Origin: Candidatus Omnitrophota bacterium
GTDB lineage: Bacteria; Omnitrophota; Gorgyraeia; Gygaellales; Profunditerraquicolaceae
Reading direction: 5' to 3'
Assembly: GCA_023229385.1 (NCBI GenBank)
Contig: JALNZI010000008.1
Coordinates: 1 to 56,797 of the forward strand
Length of the DNA: 56,797 nucleotides
Every line of letters starts with the position of its first letter. Position 1 is the first letter of the stretch. Both the position numbers and the translations under genes were made by a program. The notes below the pieces were generated by a model that worked only from the letters and a program-made list of their open reading frames with translations, did not search any database and was not told where the DNA came from. Positions 6,778 through 51,369 of this stretch are shown one piece after another.

Positions 6778-7101
6778 TTAATTGATTATTTTATTATAAA
6801 TTCCTTTAACTATTCTGTTTAATATTTGCTCATATAAATCTAATTCATATAAAGCAACTATTTTTTGATTTTCTGGATATTTTGTAGTTATATATTCTTT
6901 TCTATTTTTTAAAATATCTTTTAATAAATTAATATAATTTTGACCGGCATACCTATTAATAAAAGGATCATCTATATCTTTATTTTTCCTTTTACGTATA
7001 GTTTTTTCTAATACTTTTTCAGTATTAAATAAAGATAAATTGCTTTTATTTTTTCTAGTTCTTTTCATTATTTTAAATGTAAAGATTGTTTTTCTGCCCA
7101 A
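6778..7101 (-). CDS. hypothetical protein (possible clamp-loader accessory subunit)
   Basis: ORF immediately upstream of the clamp loader. Confidence 0.3.
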   Translation of the reverse strand: MGRKTIFTFKIMKRTRKNKSNLSLFNTEKVLEKTIRKRKNKDIDDPFINRYAGQNYINLLKDILKNRKEYITTKYPENQKIVALYELDLYEQILNRIVKGIYNKIIN

Positions 7102-8453
7102 CTATGATCAACAGGACTTGCTTCTACATCTATATCTAATGGAACAATGATCCAAGGCCAGTTTATTTGTAAATCATGACACATTATACATCGCATAACT
7201 GCAATAACGTGTTTTAATTCATCTGGTGCAATATCTAAAACAATTGAATCATGTATTTGCCCAACAATTTTACTTTTCCAATGTTCTCTTTGTTGTGCTT
7301 TTATACCTTGTATTAATGACCATAACAAACAATGAAATGCAGAACATTGAATGGGGTAATTCATAACATCATTCTTTTTCATTAAACCATGAAAAGTAAA
7401 ACCAGTCATAGTTTCTACATAACCAATATTTTGATATTGTTGCCAAATATGTTCACGCCATTCATAATATTTTTTATAACGTTTATGCCAAAAATTATAT
7501 TCAATATCTTGTATATGTTCTGTAAATAATTCTAAATTTTTAAAACCTTTACTTATTAAATGATCTGAAATATGTTTATCTTCAAAAACTATACCTTCAC
7601 CTTTTTTCCAATTTTTGGTTTTAGATAATTTACACCATTTAAAAGCTATATTTATAGCACAATTCTTATAATAGTCACCGTAAAACTGTGGAAAAATAAA
7701 ACCATTTTTAGCAGATTGTCTTAATACTGCATGTGTAGGATCATTTTTATTAAACTCTTTTAACTGAAATATTTCCATTGCCATATCCCTGTGCATATCA
7801 CCTTTCAATATATCATCAATTAAACGTTGATCTTTACAAAAACATGATGCTATCCTGACTTCAAGTTGCTTGAAATCAAGCTCAACTAATTGGTGTCCGG
7901 GACTAGGATAAATAGCAGAACGGCAAATATTCATTGCTTCTTCATCCCTTTTTGGAATATTCTGAAAATTTGGATTGCTTGATGATCCTCTGTACGAACG
8001 TACTAAATGTAAATTATAAAATGGGTGCATTATACCGTTAATAGTTTCCCTTTCAAAAGAATCTAAATAAGTATCCCTTATTTTTTTAAGTTTTTTAATT
8101 TGTAAAAGTATGTTTAATTCAGGTATATTTAATTGTACAAGTGCTTCTTCATCTGTGGAACCTTGTTGTTCTGAAGTTGTTTGTTTATCAATTTTTAGTT
8201 TTTTGACTTTGTACAAAAAATTACTTAATTGTACTGGACTGTAAATATTTATTTTACTTTTTACAGATTTTTCCCAATCTAAATAAAAATCACTTTTAAT
8301 AAATTTATGTTCAAGTTTTGTAATTTCTTTTGTTATTTCTTTTTTCTTAGCTTGAACATAATCTATATTTATGTGTAATCCAGCGGATTCAACTTTAGCT
8401 AATGCTAAAATTCCATCATGAAATAATTTATATGAATCTGTTATATTAGTCAT
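7068..8453 (-). CDS. polA: family A DNA polymerase, polymerase (palm/fingers) part
   Basis: Motif A is LVELDFKQLEVRIAS (DYSQIELR-like), motif B is RQSAKNGFIFPQFYG (RRxAKxxNFGxxYG) and motif C is VGQIHDSIV (HDE-like). NFQNIPKR is also present. Confidence 0.85.
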   Translation of the reverse strand: MTNITDSYKLFHDGILALAKVESAGLHINIDYVQAKKKEITKEITKLEHKFIKSDFYLDWEKSVKSKINIYSPVQLSNFLYKVKKLKIDKQTTSEQQGSTDEEALVQLNIPELNILLQIKKLKKIRDTYLDSFERETINGIMHPFYNLHLVRSYRGSSSNPNFQNIPKRDEEAMNICRSAIYPSPGHQLVELDFKQLEVRIASCFCKDQRLIDDILKGDMHRDMAMEIFQLKEFNKNDPTHAVLRQSAKNGFIFPQFYGDYYKNCAINIAFKWCKLSKTKNWKKGEGIVFEDKHISDHLISKGFKNLELFTEHIQDIEYNFWHKRYKKYYEWREHIWQQYQNIGYVETMTGFTFHGLMKKNDVMNYPIQCSAFHCLLWSLIQGIKAQQREHWKSKIVGQIHDSIVLDIAPDELKHVIAVMRCIMCHDLQINWPWIIVPLDIDVEASPVDHSWAEKQSLHLK

Positions 8454-8454
8454 T

Positions 8455-8739
8455 TTATTCTAATTTTCCAACTTTTTTTGAATATTGTAAATATTGTTCA
8501 ATTCTTTCAATTTTTTGAAATCTTAATGTAGGATCAGCAGTATCTAAAATATATACACTACGTAATAATTCAATTATACCTCCAAGATCATTTAATTCTT
8601 TTTCAATAATTTCTTTATTGGTAATGAGTGTAGCAGGATGATGATCATTTAAACCAAAACGTAAAGCTTTAGAAACCGCATGTATTACTTCTGCACATTC
8701 TTCAGAAAGTATTACTAATAAATGTTCTTCTCTTGTCAT
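8455..8739 (-). CDS. MazG-like all-alpha NTP pyrophosphohydrolase
   Basis: LSEECAEVIHAV (EExxE) followed about 28 residues later by EKELND (E-x2-D). Confidence 0.4.
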   Translation of the reverse strand: MTREEHLLVILSEECAEVIHAVSKALRFGLNDHHPATLITNKEIIEKELNDLGGIIELLRSVYILDTADPTLRFQKIERIEQYLQYSKKVGKLE

Positions 8740-9045
8740 TGTATTTTTAATTATTATTTGTTAATTACCCAAGTTAATGCAGCCATTTGTCCTAATAAGT
8801 AACTTATCTCATGATTTAATTCATTTCCTTCACTAGATAATAGATCAATTTGATATAATGAATGCAGTTTTTATCAGTTTTCATTCTTTCTCGATTTAGT
8901 CTTACAATTTTATTACGTATTTTATCTTCTGTTTTCATTTTAATTATTTTTTAAATACGATTATTATAATCATCATTTGATTTTATATAGCATAATAATA
9001 AAAGACAAACTATAATTAATATTATTGTTAATGTTGGTGTCATAA

Positions 9046-10290
9046 TTAAAAAGGTAATGTTAATAATTCAAATTCTTTCATTTGTTTCATAGCTAAACGA
9101 TATTCGTTAATTGAATCATAAGCACAATATTTTAATGTTTCTTTTTTACCTTCCGGTGTTGCAAAATATTCAAGTAAACGATTCATAGAATTTGCATTCT
9201 TTTCATCAATTGCTTGTAAATAAGGTTCCACAGTACTCGAATAATCAATAATGCCAAAATTAACATAGGTTTGAAATTTTAAGTTGGTAATACCTGTACG
9301 ATTATCCAATATATGTGCTGCTAACATAGCATCATGATACCAACTTTTAACCCTAGTTTTTAGTTTAACCCAACTCCAAGTTTCTTCAAATTTCATATTA
9401 TGTGAAAACTTTTTAATATACTTATTATTTAGTAAATTAATAAAAGGTTCTCTTTTTTCAATTTCATTAGGCATTGTAAAAACATAAACATTATCTTCAT
9501 CTGTTGCAACAGAACAACAAACAATTTTATGACTTTTAGCATAAGGTTTTAAACCTGTCGTTTCATAATCAAATGCAATCATTGCATTGTTTGGTATTTG
9601 TTCTAAAACACTTAAATCTGTTATATAATTAATAGTAGGTTCTTGATAAACTGGAAATTCTTTATCTAAAATTGCTAAAGCATTTTTTAAATCTTTTTCA
9701 AATATATTTGCAACTTCTACACGATTACTTTGCTGCACAAATGATGGTAAAAAAACAGGTGCAATCCAACATTTAAGTTCCTGATCAGGTATTATAAAGC
9801 CACGCCATTTATCAATACCTTCCAAAGATTTTTTCCAACGTGAACCAATTACACTTGTTAATGCAATTTTTCCAAACAAAACAATTAACTTAGGTTTGTA
9901 TTGTTGTATGATACGAAAAATATTTAACTGGCAACAACTAATTTCCTTTGCAGTAGGTATTCTACTTTTACCTGTTTCTTTATCATAAGTAAAACAACGT
10001 ACAGCATTTATGTTTATACAATCTTTTTCAATATCAATTCCTAATTTATTATAAACATGATAAATATAATTTTCACTACCCTGAAATGGTTTACTTAATT
10101 GGTCATCTTGAAAGCTTGTAAAGCTACCAATATTCATAATACCTTTTTTAAATTGACCAAAAGGTTCCATTTTAGGGTTAGGGCAATTTATATCATTTTT
10201 ATACAAACCACAACTATAACATGAAAATCCTCTTTTTTTAACAGAGAAATTATCAATTTTTGTTTCTTGTTTTGTAAAGAATCCAGTCAT
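9046..10290 (-). CDS. polA: family A DNA polymerase N-terminal part: UDG family 4-like domain plus 3'-5' exonuclease domain
   Basis: The N-terminal Cys cluster SCYSCGLYKNDINCPNP...KGIMNIGS resembles the family-4 UDG CxxCxL...IGExPG block, with the catalytic GEAPG replaced. Exo I is IAFDYETTGL, Exo II WYHDAMLAAHILD and Exo III YCAYDSINEY. Confidence 0.7.
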   Translation of the reverse strand: MTGFFTKQETKIDNFSVKKRGFSCYSCGLYKNDINCPNPKMEPFGQFKKGIMNIGSFTSFQDDQLSKPFQGSENYIYHVYNKLGIDIEKDCININAVRCFTYDKETGKSRIPTAKEISCCQLNIFRIIQQYKPKLIVLFGKIALTSVIGSRWKKSLEGIDKWRGFIIPDQELKCWIAPVFLPSFVQQSNRVEVANIFEKDLKNALAILDKEFPVYQEPTINYITDLSVLEQIPNNAMIAFDYETTGLKPYAKSHKIVCCSVATDEDNVYVFTMPNEIEKREPFINLLNNKYIKKFSHNMKFEETWSWVKLKTRVKSWYHDAMLAAHILDNRTGITNLKFQTYVNFGIIDYSSTVEPYLQAIDEKNANSMNRLLEYFATPEGKKETLKYCAYDSINEYRLAMKQMKEFELLTLPF

Positions 10291-11315
10291 TATTGTTCTT
10301 TTATACTTAAAGTTGTAAGGTAAGTCCAGTCTTTAGTTTGAAAATACAATATATTCTTATTTAAAATACATTCATCTGTGTATGTTAAAATATCCTTTAA
10401 CATACTTGCTTTTATTGAAAAAACAATTAGTTCACCGGTATATTGTATTTTCATTTTTTCTCTAAACCAACTACTATCAGATTTACTTTTTATTGTAATA
10501 ATGTTTTCATTTATTTCAATATCAATAGTATCTACAATACCTTGTTCTTTATTGGTAAAAATAATAGCTTTATCCAAAACTTCATTTAAACTTTTTGGAA
10601 AAACAATTTTTTTACCTTTAATATTTTTTAAATATTTTGATGTGTCAACAAATGTTTCTTTATAAGTACGGCATGAAATAATTGTACCTTCTTTTGTACG
10701 AAAATGGACCCAACCGTTGCCTTCTGAAACTTTTGTAGGGTTTAATTTAATCAAAGTATTTATAGATGTTGCAGGAATTAAACAAGTATCAATTGGTAAT
10801 TCATTATCTAATTTACAATGCATTATTCTTAAATTATCACAACTTTCAATAAAACCACTTTTATTAATATGTACACAAATTAGTTTTGGATCACTTACAT
10901 CACTTGAACAGCCTATTACAACAAATTTCAAAAATTCTATAAATTTATCAGGTAATTTAAACCATTTATTTTTTACAGAAATTTCTTCATCTAAAGGTAG
11001 TTTAATTTCTTCAATTAATGTAAATCCTGAAATAGATTTACCTGCTTTTAATACAATTTCTTGTTTTTCATTTTTTGTAATATCAATTTCTTCATTTTTA
11101 ATTTTTGCAAGAAATTTATAAAGTTCTTCTGCCTTAATTGCACCGGTAATATCTAAATCAGTAATAGGATGGGATATACTTATTTCATCATTATAAGTTA
11201 CTACACAACCATTTACAAAAGCAAATGAAGTGGATTGTTCAATTATTTCTTTATTTGCTAAACCGGGTTTAACAATTTCAAGTGCATGTTTTAATTCTTC
11301 TTTATTAATTTTCAT
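10290..11315 (-). CDS. dnaN: DNA polymerase sliding clamp (beta, DnaN-like)
   Basis: Three-domain size (341 aa). The N-terminus MKINKEELKHALEIVKPGL is like DnaN MKFTVEREHLLKPLQQV, TFVDTSKYL is like FPDYRRVLP, and IQYTGELIVFSIKASMLKDIL is like VTYSGAEMEIGFNVSYVLDVL. Confidence 0.65.
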   Translation of the reverse strand: MKINKEELKHALEIVKPGLANKEIIEQSTSFAFVNGCVVTYNDEISISHPITDLDITGAIKAEELYKFLAKIKNEEIDITKNEKQEIVLKAGKSISGFTLIEEIKLPLDEEISVKNKWFKLPDKFIEFLKFVVIGCSSDVSDPKLICVHINKSGFIESCDNLRIMHCKLDNELPIDTCLIPATSINTLIKLNPTKVSEGNGWVHFRTKEGTIISCRTYKETFVDTSKYLKNIKGKKIVFPKSLNEVLDKAIIFTNKEQGIVDTIDIEINENIITIKSKSDSSWFREKMKIQYTGELIVFSIKASMLKDILTYTDECILNKNILYFQTKDWTYLTTLSIKEQ

Positions 11316-12448
11316 AATTTTATTTTGATTAAACCATATTTTAAATGGAAATATTTTTTAATAATATTTGGAAAATTCATTTTAAACCTCAATAAACTCT
11401 TATTGTTTTTACTTGCTTGCATAAATGACATTTTTTTAAAAATTGCGGGAACATTACACCATCCACTTAATGCCATATAAAAAGAAGGAAAAGGACTTTT
11501 TCTCCATTTTTCAAATTTCATTATATATGGTAAGCATTCATATTTCATTAGAATATTAAGTCTTTCAAATATTTCAACCAAATCATTTTCCCAAAACTTG
11601 TCATCATATTTGTTATTTTTATCAAATGCACAAAATATATAAAATTTAGGAATTTTGTTTGGCATATACTTTTTAAACAATTTTATTTTTTCTTCAATTA
11701 TTTCTTTATCTTCATAATTATCAAATGCAAATATGTAATCACCATCATATTTACTTTCAGATAATATTTTTGCTTTTTTTTCTGTTAATAAGCGTATATC
11801 AAGACCTTGATTATAACAAAAAGGTTTTTTAGTTTCTTGCAATTGTTTGAATATAATTTCCCAATATTTTCCAGAACCAAATACATTATCGTCTAGTAAT
11901 ATAATTTTCTTTCTTTTTTCATCAACAAATTCTGATAATGGACTATGCAATGTTACAGTTTTAACACCTCTATTGAAACAAAAAGAACATTGTCTAAAAC
12001 ATCCTCTCGTTGTGAATCCGATAGAATAATCTAAATAATTTTTAAAATATTTTCTTTGTCTTCTTTTAAATCTAATTTCATTTTTTATCCATTCATCATA
12101 TAAGTGATAATCAGGAAAGTGATGTTCTATTTCATCAGGTAATCTTGGTGTTTTTGAATACTCTGGTTCTTTTTGTCCTTTTTCATAAAAAAATCCTGAT
12201 CCACCATATTCAACAAATGGTAATTTTAAAATAAATTTTGGTATGTGTGAATCAGTAAAAACTTTTGAAACAAAAACTTTATCATATTTGCTTTGAAAAA
12301 GAGCACTTGGACTAAGCTCTTCAAAAGAAATAAGTTTTACTTTATGTCCAAGTGCTTTATAATAACCTGATAATTTCATCAAAGCAAGATTGGGAAAATT
12401 ATGATGTTTTCTACTGATTAGTTCAACATCAATCATTCCAATATACAT
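11312..12448 (-). CDS. radical SAM enzyme with N-terminal B12-binding-like domain
   Basis: GFTTRGCFRQCSFCFN is a CxxxCxxC radical-SAM cluster motif, and an N-terminal Rossmann-like block MIDVELISRKHHNFPNLALMKLSGYYKALGHKV precedes it. Confidence 0.65.
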   Translation of the reverse strand: MYIGMIDVELISRKHHNFPNLALMKLSGYYKALGHKVKLISFEELSPSALFQSKYDKVFVSKVFTDSHIPKFILKLPFVEYGGSGFFYEKGQKEPEYSKTPRLPDEIEHHFPDYHLYDEWIKNEIRFKRRQRKYFKNYLDYSIGFTTRGCFRQCSFCFNRGVKTVTLHSPLSEFVDEKRKKIILLDDNVFGSGKYWEIIFKQLQETKKPFCYNQGLDIRLLTEKKAKILSESKYDGDYIFAFDNYEDKEIIEEKIKLFKKYMPNKIPKFYIFCAFDKNNKYDDKFWENDLVEIFERLNILMKYECLPYIMKFEKWRKSPFPSFYMALSGWCNVPAIFKKMSFMQASKNNKSLLRFKMNFPNIIKKYFHLKYGLIKIKL

Positions 12449-12467: not shown

Positions 12468-13511
12468 TTATATTTTTTTTACATCTTCTGCATGTTTGTA
12501 GAAGTTTTTTTCGGTGGTAAGAATCATGTACCAAAAACGTTTACTCTGTTTGTGCCAAAAGTACTTTTCAAGTTTTCCTTTTCTTTTTTCTCCTGTTTTG
12601 TCAGTAAAAGTTACCGTATCACCTTTAGCAAATCCTTTAGGCCATTCAACTTTAGCATGTTTTTCTACTTGTTCTTTAACTTTTTTAGCAGGTTTTTCTA
12701 CCTTTTTCTCTGTGGTAAGACCTTGTTCAGCAAGAATATCAAGCATTTTCTTTTTAAGGGAAAATACACTTGATTTAGCTAGTAATGATTTACGTTTCTT
12801 TTTAAACTCGTCATTTTCCTTTACCAAATTTTGCAAATCAGCTTTTTTAGCTGTTTCTTTTACCGTTATTGCAAGATTTTCTTCTTCATCCTCTTCTTCA
12901 TCCTCTTCTTCTTCTGGTTCAGGAACAATTATCTTTTTATTTTTTTTAACGGGTTCAGGTTTATCTTTTTCATTACCTTTTTTTACTGGTGGTAAGTCTT
13001 CATCTTCATCTTCATCAGGTTCAGGTTCAATTACTTTTTTACCTTTTTTTATAGGAATAGGTTCAGGTTTATCTTTTTCATTACCTTTTTTTACTGGTGG
13101 TAAGTCTTCATCTTCATCTTCATCTTCATCAGCATCTTCGTCCTCATCAGCATCTTCGTCCTCATCCTCGTCTTCATCAGCATCTTCGTCCTCATCAGCA
13201 TCTTCATCCTCATCTTCATCCTGATCAGCATCTTCGTCTTCATCAGCATCTTCATCCTCATCTTCATCCTGATCAGCATCTTCGTCTTCATCCTCTGTGC
13301 CATACTTTTCAGCTAAGCCGTCAAAAATGGCCTGTGTAGTTTTGGTAAATTTGTCACCTTCTTCAAACAGTTGAAGAACAGTATCATAAAGTTCCTTTGC
13401 AAATTCATCAAGTTCCATTTCATTATACGCTATTGCAGGATCAACTCCCACAACTTTGTCCAGCTCTTTATAAGCTGCAACCAATTCCTTTTTTGAATAA
13501 TTTTTTGCCAT
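12468..13511 (-). CDS. acidic-repeat protein (EDEDEDADxDE tract plus LPPVKKGNEKDKPEP repeats) with a basic C-terminal domain
   Basis: About 75 aa are purely D/E/A/Q repeats. LPPVKKGNEKDKPEP(I/V) occurs twice, each followed by an acidic run, and there is a C-terminal K-rich domain. Confidence 0.55.
   Translation of the reverse strand: MAKNYSKKELVAAYKELDKVVGVDPAIAYNEMELDEFAKELYDTVLQLFEEGDKFTKTTQAIFDGLAEKYGTEDEDEDADQDEDEDEDADEDEDADQDEDEDEDADEDEDADEDEDEDEDADEDEDADEDEDEDEDLPPVKKGNEKDKPEPIPIKKGKKVIEPEPDEDEDEDLPPVKKGNEKDKPEPVKKNKKIIVPEPEEEEDEEEDEEENLAITVKETAKKADLQNLVKENDEFKKKRKSLLAKSSVFSLKKKMLDILAEQGLTTEKKVEKPAKKVKEQVEKHAKVEWPKGFAKGDTVTFTDKTGEKRKGKLEKYFWHKQSKRFWYMILTTEKNFYKHAEDVKKI
12880..13300. 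repeat. tandem coding repeats (GAT/GAA/GAC-rich 48-bp units, plus a roughly 60-bp unit at about 12950 and 13055)
   Basis: gatcagcatcttcgtcttcatcagcatcttcatcctcatcttcatcct is repeated. ggttcaggtttatctttttcattacctttttttactggtggtaagtcttcatcttcatc is also repeated. Confidence 0.8.
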
Positions 13512-14052: not shown

Positions 14053-14373
14053 TTAATCACTATCTTTCATATCTTGCTCTGGCAGATATGTATCCGTCAT
14101 TTTTTCTTCTTCATAATTTTTATCAGTTTTAAGATTTTCTAACATACGCATACACATAGCAGCAGTTTGTTTTAATTCCATTTTTACATCTTCAATAGAA
14201 CCACATCCATCTATATAATGTAAAACAGCTTTAGTTACTTCACCAGCTTCTTCTTGCATTATAGCAAGTTGTTCCAACATATCCTTTGGATATTTTGGAT
14301 GAATCCTTTTTGCACGTTGTAATTCATGATCTATTGCCATGTACTTTTCTAAACGATTTGATTCTGCATTCAT
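14053..14373 (-). CDS. MazG-like NTP pyrophosphohydrolase (second copy)
   Basis: LAIMQEEAGEVTKAV is an EExGE core. Confidence 0.4.
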   Translation of the reverse strand: MNAESNRLEKYMAIDHELQRAKRIHPKYPKDMLEQLAIMQEEAGEVTKAVLHYIDGCGSIEDVKMELKQTAAMCMRMLENLKTDKNYEEEKMTDTYLPEQDMKDSD

Positions 14374-17213: not shown

Positions 17214-17552
17214 TTATTTGTTTAATAATTTAATATTATTTTTGATTTCAGCAAAATACTTTCTTAACCTTAGCTCTTCTACTAAATCAGGTTTATCTCT
17301 TTTATAAAGTTCATCTATATACATTGGAATAACCATTGCACCATGGCATAAATTACAAGTTTCAAAACCATTACTAATTGAAGTAGGTGAACCATACCAA
17401 TTATTAATTAGTATTTTTCCATTACCATTACATTTAGGACATAATTGATATGGTATGTATTGAATTGTTTTCTTATTTTTTTTCATTTTACCTATTCCTT
17501 TTATACATTTTTCCATTATGACGAATAAATAAATTATAACCATTCTGTGCAT
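17214..17552 (-). CDS. zinc-ribbon protein
   Basis: CPKCNGNG...CNLCHG. Confidence 0.35.
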   Translation of the reverse strand: MHRMVIIYLFVIMEKCIKGIGKMKKNKKTIQYIPYQLCPKCNGNGKILINNWYGSPTSISNGFETCNLCHGAMVIPMYIDELYKRDKPDLVEELRLRKYFAEIKNNIKLLNK

Positions 17553-28677: not shown

Positions 28678-29070
28678 TTATTTATTTTTAAGGTTTTTAA
28701 GATATACATTTCTAATGTACTCTTTTGAATAAATGCCTTCAAACAATTCAAAAGTATCCACCAAATCACCTGTGTAAAAACACTCAAAGTTTTCAAAGGC
28801 ATCAAGAATTTCTGCTTCTTCAAGTTTACCTTTTTTAATTTCTAAGCCTTTCCACAGTTTTATTTCATCCATGCCTTCACGGAATTTTAAAAAATAACCT
28901 TCAGGCATGTAACCACCAGCCCCCAGAGAAATGTATTTTTCATTTTCTCTAAGTTTCGTTTTACCTTTTTCGAATTGATCATGAGAGAATGCAAAAAATA
29001 CTTTGCAATCTTTCATTAACTGATCAACTCTTTTTTGTTCTTCGTTTTTAATTTCACTTAAATTCATCAT
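28678..29070 (-). CDS. hypothetical protein
   Basis: 130-aa ORF. Confidence 0.35.
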   Translation of the reverse strand: MMNLSEIKNEEQKRVDQLMKDCKVFFAFSHDQFEKGKTKLRENEKYISLGAGGYMPEGYFLKFREGMDEIKLWKGLEIKKGKLEEAEILDAFENFECFYTGDLVDTFELFEGIYSKEYIRNVYLKNLKNK

Positions 29071-33612: not shown

Positions 33613-35160
33613 ATGGAAGTAACATTGGTCAGAACAAAACGTAATAGGGTTAAACCTGTGGAATCGAAAGAATCACGGGCAAAACTTGTTCTGACCAATC
33701 CTTTAGCCATACAAAAAGAATTAAATAATCGTTCGTTATATGAGTTTTTGAAATGGGCTTGGCCTGAAATTAGCAATGCACCATTTGTTGAAAACTGGCA
33801 TTTACCTTATTTATGTAGTGAATTGGAGCAAGTAGCATACCAAGTAGGTGAACGCAGGAAAAAGGATCATGATTTATTGATTAACATTTCACCGGGTTCA
33901 ACAAAGACTATATTATGCTGTATTGTATTTCCTGCATGGTGTTGGACCAAATGGTATTGGATGCGGTTTATTACAGCTTCGTATTCAGCACAATTAGCAT
34001 TGGAAGCTGCTGATTATAGTAGGGATTTAATAAAATCCCAGATATTTAGGGAAATGTATCCTGAAATTGATATTAAACCTGATAAAGACACAAAATCAAA
34101 CTATAAGATTGTACGTAGGGTAGTTAGTCCTACTTCTGAATTTTATACAAGAGAATGGTTAGGCGGTAATAGGTTTACTACTTCGGTAGGTGGTACGGCA
34201 ACCGGTTTTCATGGTGATATATTAATATGGGATGATGCTTTAAACCCTGAACAAGCACTTTCAGACAAAGAAATAGAAACTGCAAACCATTGGGTTGACC
34301 ATACTTTAAGCACACGTAAAACTAATAAAGCTATTAGTGTAACCATAGGTATTATGCAGAGGTTACACCAAAACGATCCTTCAGGCCATTTATTAGCTAA
34401 AAAGAAAAAGAATTTACGGCATATATGTATGCCGGGCGAAATATTACATTTTAAAGAAGCTTTACAACCACCAGAATTAGCACAATATTATAAAGACGAT
34501 TTATTTGATGCAAATCGAATGAATTGGAATACATTGCACGAGCTTGAAACAGACTTAGGCCAATATGGTTATGCCGGGCAGATAGGGCAAATACCTTCAC
34601 CACCGGGTGGTGGGATGTTCAAGGTTGAACATTTTCAAATGACAAGTGAAATATTCCCAAAAGATTTTTATATACGTAGTGTACGTTATTGGGATAAAGC
34701 TGGTAGTGCAAATAAAGGGGCTTATACAGTTGGTGTAAAGATTTCACTATTAAAGAATAAATTATTTATTATTGATGACGTTAAACGTGGTCAATGGAGT
34801 TCTGAAAAACGTGAATCTATTATAAGGCAAACTGCTGAAGTTGATGGAAGAAAATGTTGGGTGGTTGTAGAACAGGAACCAGGTAGCGGCGGTAAAGAAT
34901 CTGCTGAAAATACTATTAAGAATTTAGCAGGATTTCTTGCTGAGGCTGATAAACCATCTGGTGATAAAGCTGAACGTGCTGATCCTTTAAGTGTACAGGT
35001 TAATAATGGTACAATATTAATGAGGATTGCTGATTGGAATAAGGAATTTAAGGATGAATTTGAATTGTTTCCAAATTCTGTATATAAGGATCAAGTAGAT
35101 GCTACTTCCGGTGGATTTAATTTTTTGGTTAAGAAAAAAATTGCAAGACGTTTAGTTTAA
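33613..35160 (+). CDS. terL: terminase large subunit
   Basis: ATPase Walker A-like INISPGSTKT and Walker B ILIWDDALNP. C-terminal RNaseH-like nuclease VVVEQEPGSGGKES...DQVDATSGG. Confidence 0.85.
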   Translation: MEVTLVRTKRNRVKPVESKESRAKLVLTNPLAIQKELNNRSLYEFLKWAWPEISNAPFVENWHLPYLCSELEQVAYQVGERRKKDHDLLINISPGSTKTILCCIVFPAWCWTKWYWMRFITASYSAQLALEAADYSRDLIKSQIFREMYPEIDIKPDKDTKSNYKIVRRVVSPTSEFYTREWLGGNRFTTSVGGTATGFHGDILIWDDALNPEQALSDKEIETANHWVDHTLSTRKTNKAISVTIGIMQRLHQNDPSGHLLAKKKKNLRHICMPGEILHFKEALQPPELAQYYKDDLFDANRMNWNTLHELETDLGQYGYAGQIGQIPSPPGGGMFKVEHFQMTSEIFPKDFYIRSVRYWDKAGSANKGAYTVGVKISLLKNKLFIIDDVKRGQWSSEKRESIIRQTAEVDGRKCWVVVEQEPGSGGKESAENTIKNLAGFLAEADKPSGDKAERADPLSVQVNNGTILMRIADWNKEFKDEFELFPNSVYKDQVDATSGGFNFLVKKKIARRLV

Positions 35161-50835: not shown

Positions 50836-51369
50836 GTGAATATGTCAAATCAAGGATTTTTTATAAAGAATACAAGAATACCTTCACTTGGTAAAGGTGG
50901 AACTAAGTTTGGATTCTATTGTAGAATAACTGGGTATGAAAATGTAGAACGTGGTTTGCTTATTCAAATAGCTAAAATGAAAAAGCGAACAAAGATAGGC
51001 TTACATGAAGCTGTTGAACATTTACATAAAGACATTCAAGAAGGACCATATCCACAAGAACCTTGGGGAGAAGATAGGTATGTGGGTGGTGTTATGGTAC
51101 ATAAGGGAGGAACTTTAAGTAATTCTTGGGAAACAAAAGATGTTGGTGGTGTAGACAGTCCAGAAATAATTTTTGGTTATAATATGAATAAAGCTCCTTA
51201 TGCTTGGTATGTACATGAAATGACTAGTCCACCTTATGGTGATGTACAATGGACAAAAGATGTTAGACCAAATGCAGGTCCTCAATGGCTTACAGTTGGA
51301 ATACAAAGAAATAAACCTATTATGTTATCTATTATTGCTATGAATGCAAGTGTGGAGGGAAAAATATAA
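50836..51369 (+). CDS. putative neck/tail completion protein
   Basis: Assigned from position. Confidence 0.3.
   Translation: MNMSNQGFFIKNTRIPSLGKGGTKFGFYCRITGYENVERGLLIQIAKMKKRTKIGLHEAVEHLHKDIQEGPYPQEPWGEDRYVGGVMVHKGGTLSNSWETKDVGGVDSPEIIFGYNMNKAPYAWYVHEMTSPPYGDVQWTKDVRPNAGPQWLTVGIQRNKPIMLSIIAMNASVEGKI

Follow-up and report, generated by a model that had tools for sequence, protein, structure and literature searches.

The 56,797-nucleotide contig JALNZI010000008.1 (hereafter the window), deposited in the Candidatus Omnitrophota assembly GCA_023229385.1, carries on its minus strand a gene that, judged by its conserved [4Fe-4S]/SAM-type motif and its predicted Rossmann-plus-barrel architecture, encodes a genuine radical S-adenosylmethionine (SAM) enzyme. 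It is a member of PHROG 9298, a catalogued yet functionally uncharacterised family whose members are limited to phages of strict anaerobes and to prophages in such organisms, and whose genes frequently adjoin those of DNA methyltransferases. We tentatively propose that the enzyme may well act on DNA or nucleotides, which it would modify by radical chemistry, perhaps as a C-methylase, and that it would be expressed together with the replisome.

A divergent family in phages of strict anaerobes

The gene is an open reading frame (ORF) with an ATG start and 378 codons plus stop. The N-terminus of its product, MYIGMIDVEL, aligns with the starts of homologs (MKIGIIDADL), and hence the start codon is well placed. 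The gene and the parts of the protein that it encodes are as follows.

11312..12448, minus strand: radical SAM enzyme gene, ORF, member of PHROG 9298 (E = 4.2e-47, residues 8-344)
12185..12448, minus strand: N-terminal Rossmann-like domain, residues 1-88, with AlphaFold2 strands at 2-7, 36-40, 57-61 and 79-81 interleaved with helices
12029..12184, minus strand: linker, residues 89-140, with two helices and the invariant block E108-H109..P112-D-Y114..L116-Y117..W120
11978..12001, minus strand: CxxxCxxC [4Fe-4S]/SAM motif C150-F-R-Q-C154-S-F-C157, residues 150-157, read from the sequence
11513..12028, minus strand: radical SAM partial TIM-barrel core, about residues 141-312
11315..11512, minus strand: C-terminal helical bundle, residues 313-378, with AlphaFold2 helices across 313-366 and conserved W330 and N332

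The CFRQCSFC motif that a preliminary description of this DNA had picked out in the ORF is real. Its three cysteines, C150, C154 and C157, are invariant in an alignment of 31 homologs at 50-79% identity (A1) and at least 90% conserved in a wider alignment of 57 members at 28-48% identity (A2), and, of the 132 50%-identity cluster representatives that span this region in their match, 130 retain the CxxxCxxC motif. The loss of the triad among homologs, which that description had named as fatal to its assignment, is thus not seen. The partial (beta/alpha)6 TIM-barrel core of the radical SAM superfamily is present as well. The general Pfam model of the superfamily, PF04055 (Radical_SAM), gives the window protein 9.4 bits against a cutoff of 29.5 (E = 1.5, residues 146-167); weak matches occur in 24 of 57 members at E <= 0.05, the best at 9e-5, and one member scores 25.1 bits, which is also below the cutoff. 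Searches of Pfam, NCBIfam and PDB sequences, with the single protein and with family profiles, returned nothing above cutoff. We conclude that the family is too divergent for the PF04055 model and that its membership of the superfamily rests on motif and fold.

The window protein aligns to positions 3-290 of the 305 in the PHROG 9298 profile, which is annotated as 'radical SAM domain protein', and phage records with the same annotation were recovered. The family is abundant: a large protein collection contains more than 6,400 homologs, and no Pfam domain had been precomputed for any of them. When a family profile was run against 1.84 billion cluster representatives, 3,014 clusters matched at E <= 1e-3, 393 of them at E <= 1e-30, so that the family comprises about 3,000 clusters at 50% identity. 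In the phage collection 17 records matched, every one of them from an anaerobic host or a gut sample; among the hosts are Oscillospiraceae, Methanomassiliicoccales, Clostridium tetani, Bacteroides, Phocaeicola and Marinitoga. IMG/VR holds at least 574 confirmed relatives, a relative being encoded in 574 of the 600 stretches scanned. A scan of one genome per GTDB species with alignment A1 found 400 stretches that encode a relative; among the best 80 of these 400 loci nearly all taxa are anaerobic and most are Bacillota, with Lachnospiraceae, Oscillospiraceae, Selenomonadaceae, Clostridia, Megasphaera and Fibrobacter represented, together with single Saccharibacteria and Verrucomicrobiota bins. 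The GTDB loci have prophage-type neighbours. For all this abundance, no Pfam or NCBIfam model matched the family above cutoff and a literature search found no published paper on it; a paper on the Heliusvirales mentions methyltransferase and SAM synthetase genes, and not the radical SAM gene.

Predicted fold and the question of cobalamin

The AlphaFold2 model, built with the family alignment, reached a predicted local distance difference test (pLDDT) score of 88.4 and a predicted template modelling (pTM) score of 0.83. It supports the N-terminal Rossmann-like block of the preliminary description in the form of a four-stranded domain, a reduced one with short helices. Conserved residues of this domain are D7, F18-P-N-L21, M24-K25, K31, V63-F64 and G82-G-x-G-F86; none is a cysteine, and an auxiliary [4Fe-4S] cluster is therefore absent. 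The linker contains a 9-residue insertion (residues 89-98, pLDDT below 50) that is found only in the window protein and its closest relative. Within the barrel core the conserved positions are D186-D-N188, Q214-G-x-D217-x-R219, A241-F-D243, F275-D276, R296 and P307..M310. The protein is basic, with an isoelectric point of 9.4 (family median 8.7).

The best structural matches of the model are MgmA, AprD4, RimO/MiaB, TsrM, CysS and TokK, and the predicted structure thereby falls in the class-B/methylthiotransferase/AprD4 fold group. Of the enzymes that had been suggested for comparison, those with class B-type folds are thus among the best matches, whereas QueE and viperin match the radical SAM core only. 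The earlier label of a class-B-like enzyme accordingly holds for the modelled architecture, whereas its companion, that of a B12-binding type, is not established. The expected pairing of Radical_SAM with a B12-binding domain appeared in its first half alone, as the weak PF04055 matches described above; the Pfam B12-binding model PF02310 was matched by 0 of 57 members at E <= 0.05, which leaves cobalamin binding without sequence support. In addition, cobalamin-free AprD4 and the methylthiotransferases MiaB/RimO reach structural scores about equal to those of true B12 enzymes, MgmA included. The NCBIfam signals all lie far below cutoff and are divided among NrdG2, MiaB/RimO and several B12-radical-SAM families, the models of the last giving scattered sub-threshold matches in 2-4 members each (n = 57).

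According to a 2026 review (PMC12931638), AprD4- and ArsL-type enzymes have Rossmann-related domains that do not bind cobalamin, and cobalamin domains comprise five strands and five helices in class I, and four strands and four helices in Mmp10 and DUF512 proteins; the review describes no DNA-modifying member of class B. The closest characterised enzymes differ from the window protein in several respects. MgmA (QCMT; PDB 9ccb), the class B cobalamin-dependent C-methyltransferase of a glutamine in methyl-coenzyme M reductase, is 13-16% identical to it, and its NCBIfam model TIGR04014 is weakly matched by 3 of 57 members of PHROG 9298. The substrate of MgmA is a protein. The window family is confined to phages and has a four-strand N-terminal domain in place of the five-strand, five-helix fold of class I. 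AprD4 (PDB 6fd2), a radical SAM 1,2-diol dehydratase with 10% identity, has an aminoglycoside as its substrate and belongs to an antibiotic biosynthetic cluster, a context that is absent around the window gene. MiaB and RimO (PDB 7mjv and 4jc0) possess auxiliary-cluster cysteines and a TRAM domain, whereas the window family has neither and ends in a helical bundle. We rejected a methylthiotransferase identity on these grounds: there is no conserved cysteine before residue 150 in A1 or A2, no Pfam match to TRAM was obtained and residues 313-378 are all-helical. QueE (7-carboxy-7-deazaguanine synthase) and viperin, both known from phage or antiviral biology, have the radical SAM core in common with the family, and a place in the 7-deazaguanine pathway was likewise rejected, the combination of a QueE fold with co-occurring FolE, QueD, QueC and DpdA not being found.

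Linkage to methyltransferases and replication genes

We called and clustered ORFs in 163 loci, 149 of which have the radical SAM gene. In 68 of these 149 a DNA methyltransferase gene directly adjoins it, and in 82 one lies no more than two genes away; methyltransferase frequency is 0.23 at position -1 and 0.35 at +1, compared with 0.00-0.09 at all other positions from -8 to +8. Nine distinct methyltransferase clusters, of N6/N4 and C5 types, adjoin the radical SAM gene. Adjacent pairs are almost always co-directional (81 of 83), and the gap is 30 nucleotides or less in 69 of the 83. Among the neighbours confirmed with Pfam are a fusion of ParB_N with N6_N4_Mtase, a D12 Dam methylase, a PAPS-reductase-like (PAPS_reduct) protein and a 276-residue protein with an S-AdoMet synthetase N-domain; SAM-synthetase-like genes recur nearby, as do C5 methylases, SNF2 helicases, ThyX, HNH, terS and TerL. 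Annotated phages fit this picture. A methyltransferase gene runs into the start of the radical SAM gene in the Oscillospiraceae phage NatCom_21982; in LoVEphage a PAPS reductase is encoded upstream and Dam by the second gene downstream; and in the Bacteroides phage BKO1-TP3, where genes for recombination and replication surround the radical SAM gene, a methyltransferase lies at a distance of 3 kb.

A second recurrent association is with a domain of its own. At least 10 of the 150 best representatives bear a C-terminal helical, basic extension of about 250 residues with the motifs IPQFSN, KYGENHxK and STxxRR. This KYGEN domain (about 230 residues; residues 372-631 of the fused protein P0126) is encoded as a separate gene directly downstream, at position +1, in 8-10 loci (including L116, L141, L150, L155, L158 and L160). 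It has no Pfam match, its sole PDB match is a non-significant one to the C-terminal domain of KsgA (E = 0.22), and its roughly 30 detectable homologs are all unnamed. From AlphaFold2 secondary structure alone the domain looks helical with short hairpins, winged-helix-like, and a role in DNA binding is conceivable. At the C-terminus of one family member the RNA-polymerase alpha-CTD fold is matched below threshold, with 20.8 bits where the cutoff is 23.8. Apparent fusions to C5-methyltransferases in P0127 and P0249 were set aside as unreliable, each being a single representative that looks truncated or chimeric.

Two other observations concern individual relatives. P0157 contains an insertion of the LAGLIDADG homing-endonuclease type at residues ~348-399 of the radical SAM protein, which suggests an intein or homing element. 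The phage contig that encodes the 63%-identical homolog P0011 also encodes a second radical-SAM-like protein of 211 residues with CPHDCSYC near its N-terminus (L165 5311..5946; L166 306..941); its gene lies directly upstream of the radical SAM gene and overlaps it, and by eye the protein is of the phage Gp37/Gp68 (DUF5131) type.

In the window itself the gene stands, as the preliminary description had it, inside the replication module and between the sliding clamp and acidic-repeat genes. The surrounding minus-strand block is a co-directional replication and recombination module that also encodes a RuvC-like resolvase, a UvsX-like recombinase, a clamp loader, a split family-A polymerase, a DnaB-like helicase, a DnaD-like loader, a primase and a SNF2-type helicase. 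The nearest genes are these.

12468..13511, minus strand: acidic-repeat (D/E-repeat) protein gene, upstream, ending 19 nucleotides before the radical SAM start
10290..11315, minus strand: sliding clamp gene (DNA polymerase processivity factor), downstream, PHROG 947, E = 5e-29
9046..10290, minus strand: family-A polymerase, part with the UDG-superfamily domain and 3'-5' exonuclease
8455..8739, minus strand: MazG-like pyrophosphohydrolase ORF, 94 residues, between the polymerase parts
7068..8453, minus strand: family-A polymerase, polymerase-domain part

The stop codon of the radical SAM gene and the ATG of the clamp gene overlap within the ATGA at 11312-11315. From this arrangement the radical SAM gene appears to be co-transcribed and translationally coupled with replisome genes, in which case the enzyme would act on newly made DNA. 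The order of radical SAM gene and clamp recurs in L005, L006, L163 and L172, and in the window lineage (L163, L005, L006 and L003, at 53-78% identity) the longer order from DnaB through acidic protein, radical SAM enzyme and clamp to polymerase is kept, with a methyltransferase inserted between the radical SAM gene and the clamp in L003. An identical radical SAM protein with the same neighbours is found on contigs from two other samples.

In the acidic-repeat protein a conserved N-terminal domain of about 70 residues and a basic C-terminal domain are accompanied by long stretches of D/E, which alternate with K/P-rich 'PPVKKGNEKDKPEP' units; the protein has no Pfam domain. Its positional homologs lie directly upstream of the radical SAM gene in L163, L005, L003 and L006. 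May it be a DNA mimic, or a chaperone? We pose both as questions. Elsewhere in the module, the two polymerase parts are separated, beyond the MazG-like ORF, by about 300 nucleotides without an ORF (8740..9045). A second small all-alpha ORF at 14053..14373 (minus strand; PHROG 32803/31484) is MazG-like by eye, with no Pfam or PDB sequence match. Two further genes encode a DUF7659 protein (28678..29070, minus strand, E = 3e-15) and a small CxxC-rich zinc-finger-like protein (17214..17552, minus strand) next to the DnaB-like helicase gene.

The window phage has no close relative in the phage collection. Its large terminase (33613..35160, plus strand) has its nearest counterparts in Cellulophaga, Riemerella and Croceibacter phages (Flavobacteriia), at only 35-38% identity, and the radical SAM start has no Shine-Dalgarno-like sequence upstream; together these sequence features suggest a host among the Bacteroidota. 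Promoter and terminator scans were uninformative in the AT-rich window (59 sites, 56 expected).

Candidate substrates and significance

The preliminary description had remarked that phage radical SAM enzymes in DNA-metabolism neighbourhoods are typically DNA or nucleotide modifiers or anti-defence factors, and had left this one unassigned. A DNA or nucleotide target gains support from the methyltransferase linkage and from the precedent of phage M6 gp53; the substrate itself we infer. M6 gp53, a radical SAM N-alpha-glycinylthymine isomerase, is likewise phage-encoded and acts post-replicatively on a DNA base; it is unrelated to the present family, being spore-photoproduct-lyase-like, and a 2021 study presented it as the earliest demonstrated case of DNA modification by a radical SAM enzyme (PMC8989533). 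Our literature search found no later one.

In the scheme that we tentatively favour, a [4Fe-4S] cluster on C150, C154 and C157 would cleave SAM reductively and so initiate radical chemistry through a 5'-deoxyadenosyl radical, with cobalamin either serving as methyl carrier or not being used. The target would be a base in phage DNA or a nucleotide precursor, and the enzyme would form part of a SAM-consuming DNA-modification toolkit, to which it would add a carbon-centred base modification beyond the reach of SN2 methyltransferases, for example C-methylation should the N-terminal domain bind cobalamin. Such a modification would shield the phage genome from host restriction or nucleases. A stronger version, in which the family provides the first class-B-like radical SAM enzyme to work on DNA and makes a carbon-linked base modification, such as C-methylation of an unactivated position or extension of a methyl mark left by the neighbouring N6/N4 or C5 methyltransferase, is doubtful, if attractive.

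Several observations weigh against a DNA-directed modifying enzyme, and the lack of PF02310 matches counts among them. Single-linkage dereplication of the radical SAM proteins at 70% identity leaves 41 groups, with an adjacent methyltransferase in only 10; the methyltransferase signal may in large part be synteny inherited within one prophage lineage. Methyltransferases are in any case common in that genome region, and the distant members phiCT453B, MCV1 and vir215 have none nearby. A tblastn search of the 56.8-kb window with more than 200 neighbour proteins, together with Pfam searches of 20 unassigned ORFs, detected neither a methyltransferase nor a SAM synthetase or other known modification gene, nor a terS or HNH partner; the evidence from guilt by association therefore comes from other phages. 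(An 'SPPY' regex match in a 177-residue structural-module ORF, 50836..51369, was judged a false positive.) In addition, the window strongly avoids several palindromes, namely GAATTC (1 observed, 16.9 expected), CATATG (0, 13.3), GATATC (0, 10.6), GTATAC (1, 10.2), CTGCAG (0, 7.3) and CTAG (33, 74), with CCGG over-represented (77, 44.6 expected). The avoidance of 6-bp palindromes speaks weakly against a global protective hypermodification that covers all sites.

Rather than a base in DNA, the substrate of a cobalamin-independent radical enzyme could be a small molecule, such as a nucleotide or a metabolite of the deoxynucleoside triphosphate (dNTP) pool, a nucleotide sugar, a nucleotide that signals in immunity, or SAM, with nucleotide supply or anti-defence as the purpose. 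By analogy, AprD4 carries out a dehydration with the same architecture. We consider this rather unlikely, given that the recurrent tight linkage to methyltransferases and the fused basic helical domain, with its possible affinity for nucleic acid, point to a polymer as substrate, and that no conserved partner from a small-molecule pathway was found in the 149 neighbourhoods.

The polymer could also be RNA or protein. An enzyme that modifies tRNA, rRNA, or a ribosomal or replisome protein might reprogram the host or mature a phage protein, by analogy with MiaB/RimO, which methylthiolate RNA and protein, or with MgmA, which methylates a protein glutamine. MgmA, RimO and MiaB are indeed among the top four structural matches, the weak NCBIfam signals to MiaB/RimO families amount to 16 member-matches, the non-significant likeness of the fused C-terminal domain is to the RNA-binding part of KsgA, and the conserved acidic protein encoded directly upstream in the window lineage offers a possible protein partner. 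We nevertheless regard this as improbable. The family has neither the N-terminal cysteine trio nor the TRAM domain of the methylthiotransferases, its neighbourhood is centred on DNA (methyltransferases, ParB, SNF2, clamp, HerA/NurA and recombinases), and the acidic protein accompanies it only in the window lineage.

It is very unlikely that the family is a prophage-borne defence or superinfection-exclusion enzyme in the manner of the prokaryotic viperins. Many members do reside in prophages of bacterial genomes and radical SAM enzymes do occur in defence systems; no PADLOC defence model was hit, the nearest approach being PDC-M51A, at E = 0.007-0.01 and about 13 bits in 2 of 10 members. An NrdG-like activase of a glycyl-radical enzyme, the anaerobic ribonucleotide reductase, that would supply dNTPs in anaerobic hosts is hardly credible: the confinement to anaerobes, the replication context and the rank of NrdG2 (TIGR02495) as the commonest weak NCBIfam match (15 of 57 members, best E = 8e-4) would suit it, whereas the family has an extra N-terminal domain that sets it apart from the NrdG/PflA activating enzymes, the NrdG2 matches at E >= 8e-4 stay far below cutoff, and no NrdD-like ORF occurs in the window or in the conserved neighbourhoods.

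The enzyme class by itself is ordinary. A specific and testable argument for a DNA modification not yet described comes instead from how large the family is, from its being found in viruses of anaerobes and from its genetic association with DNA methylation. Should the family modify DNA, phages would gain a new enzymatic route to modified DNA, and probably a new base, and the chemistry of Rossmann-plus-radical-SAM enzymes would be extended to nucleic-acid polymers; were the class-B-like reading also true, this would be a new type of modification, widespread in viruses of gut and other anaerobic microbes. Members are known from phages and prophages in the guts of humans and animals and in anaerobic digesters, where a modification that has escaped detection could affect the evasion of restriction, the base-calling of viromes from long reads and the engineering of phages for anaerobes. 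Even with another substrate, the family would still fill a gap in annotation, because it has neither a Pfam nor an NCBIfam model.

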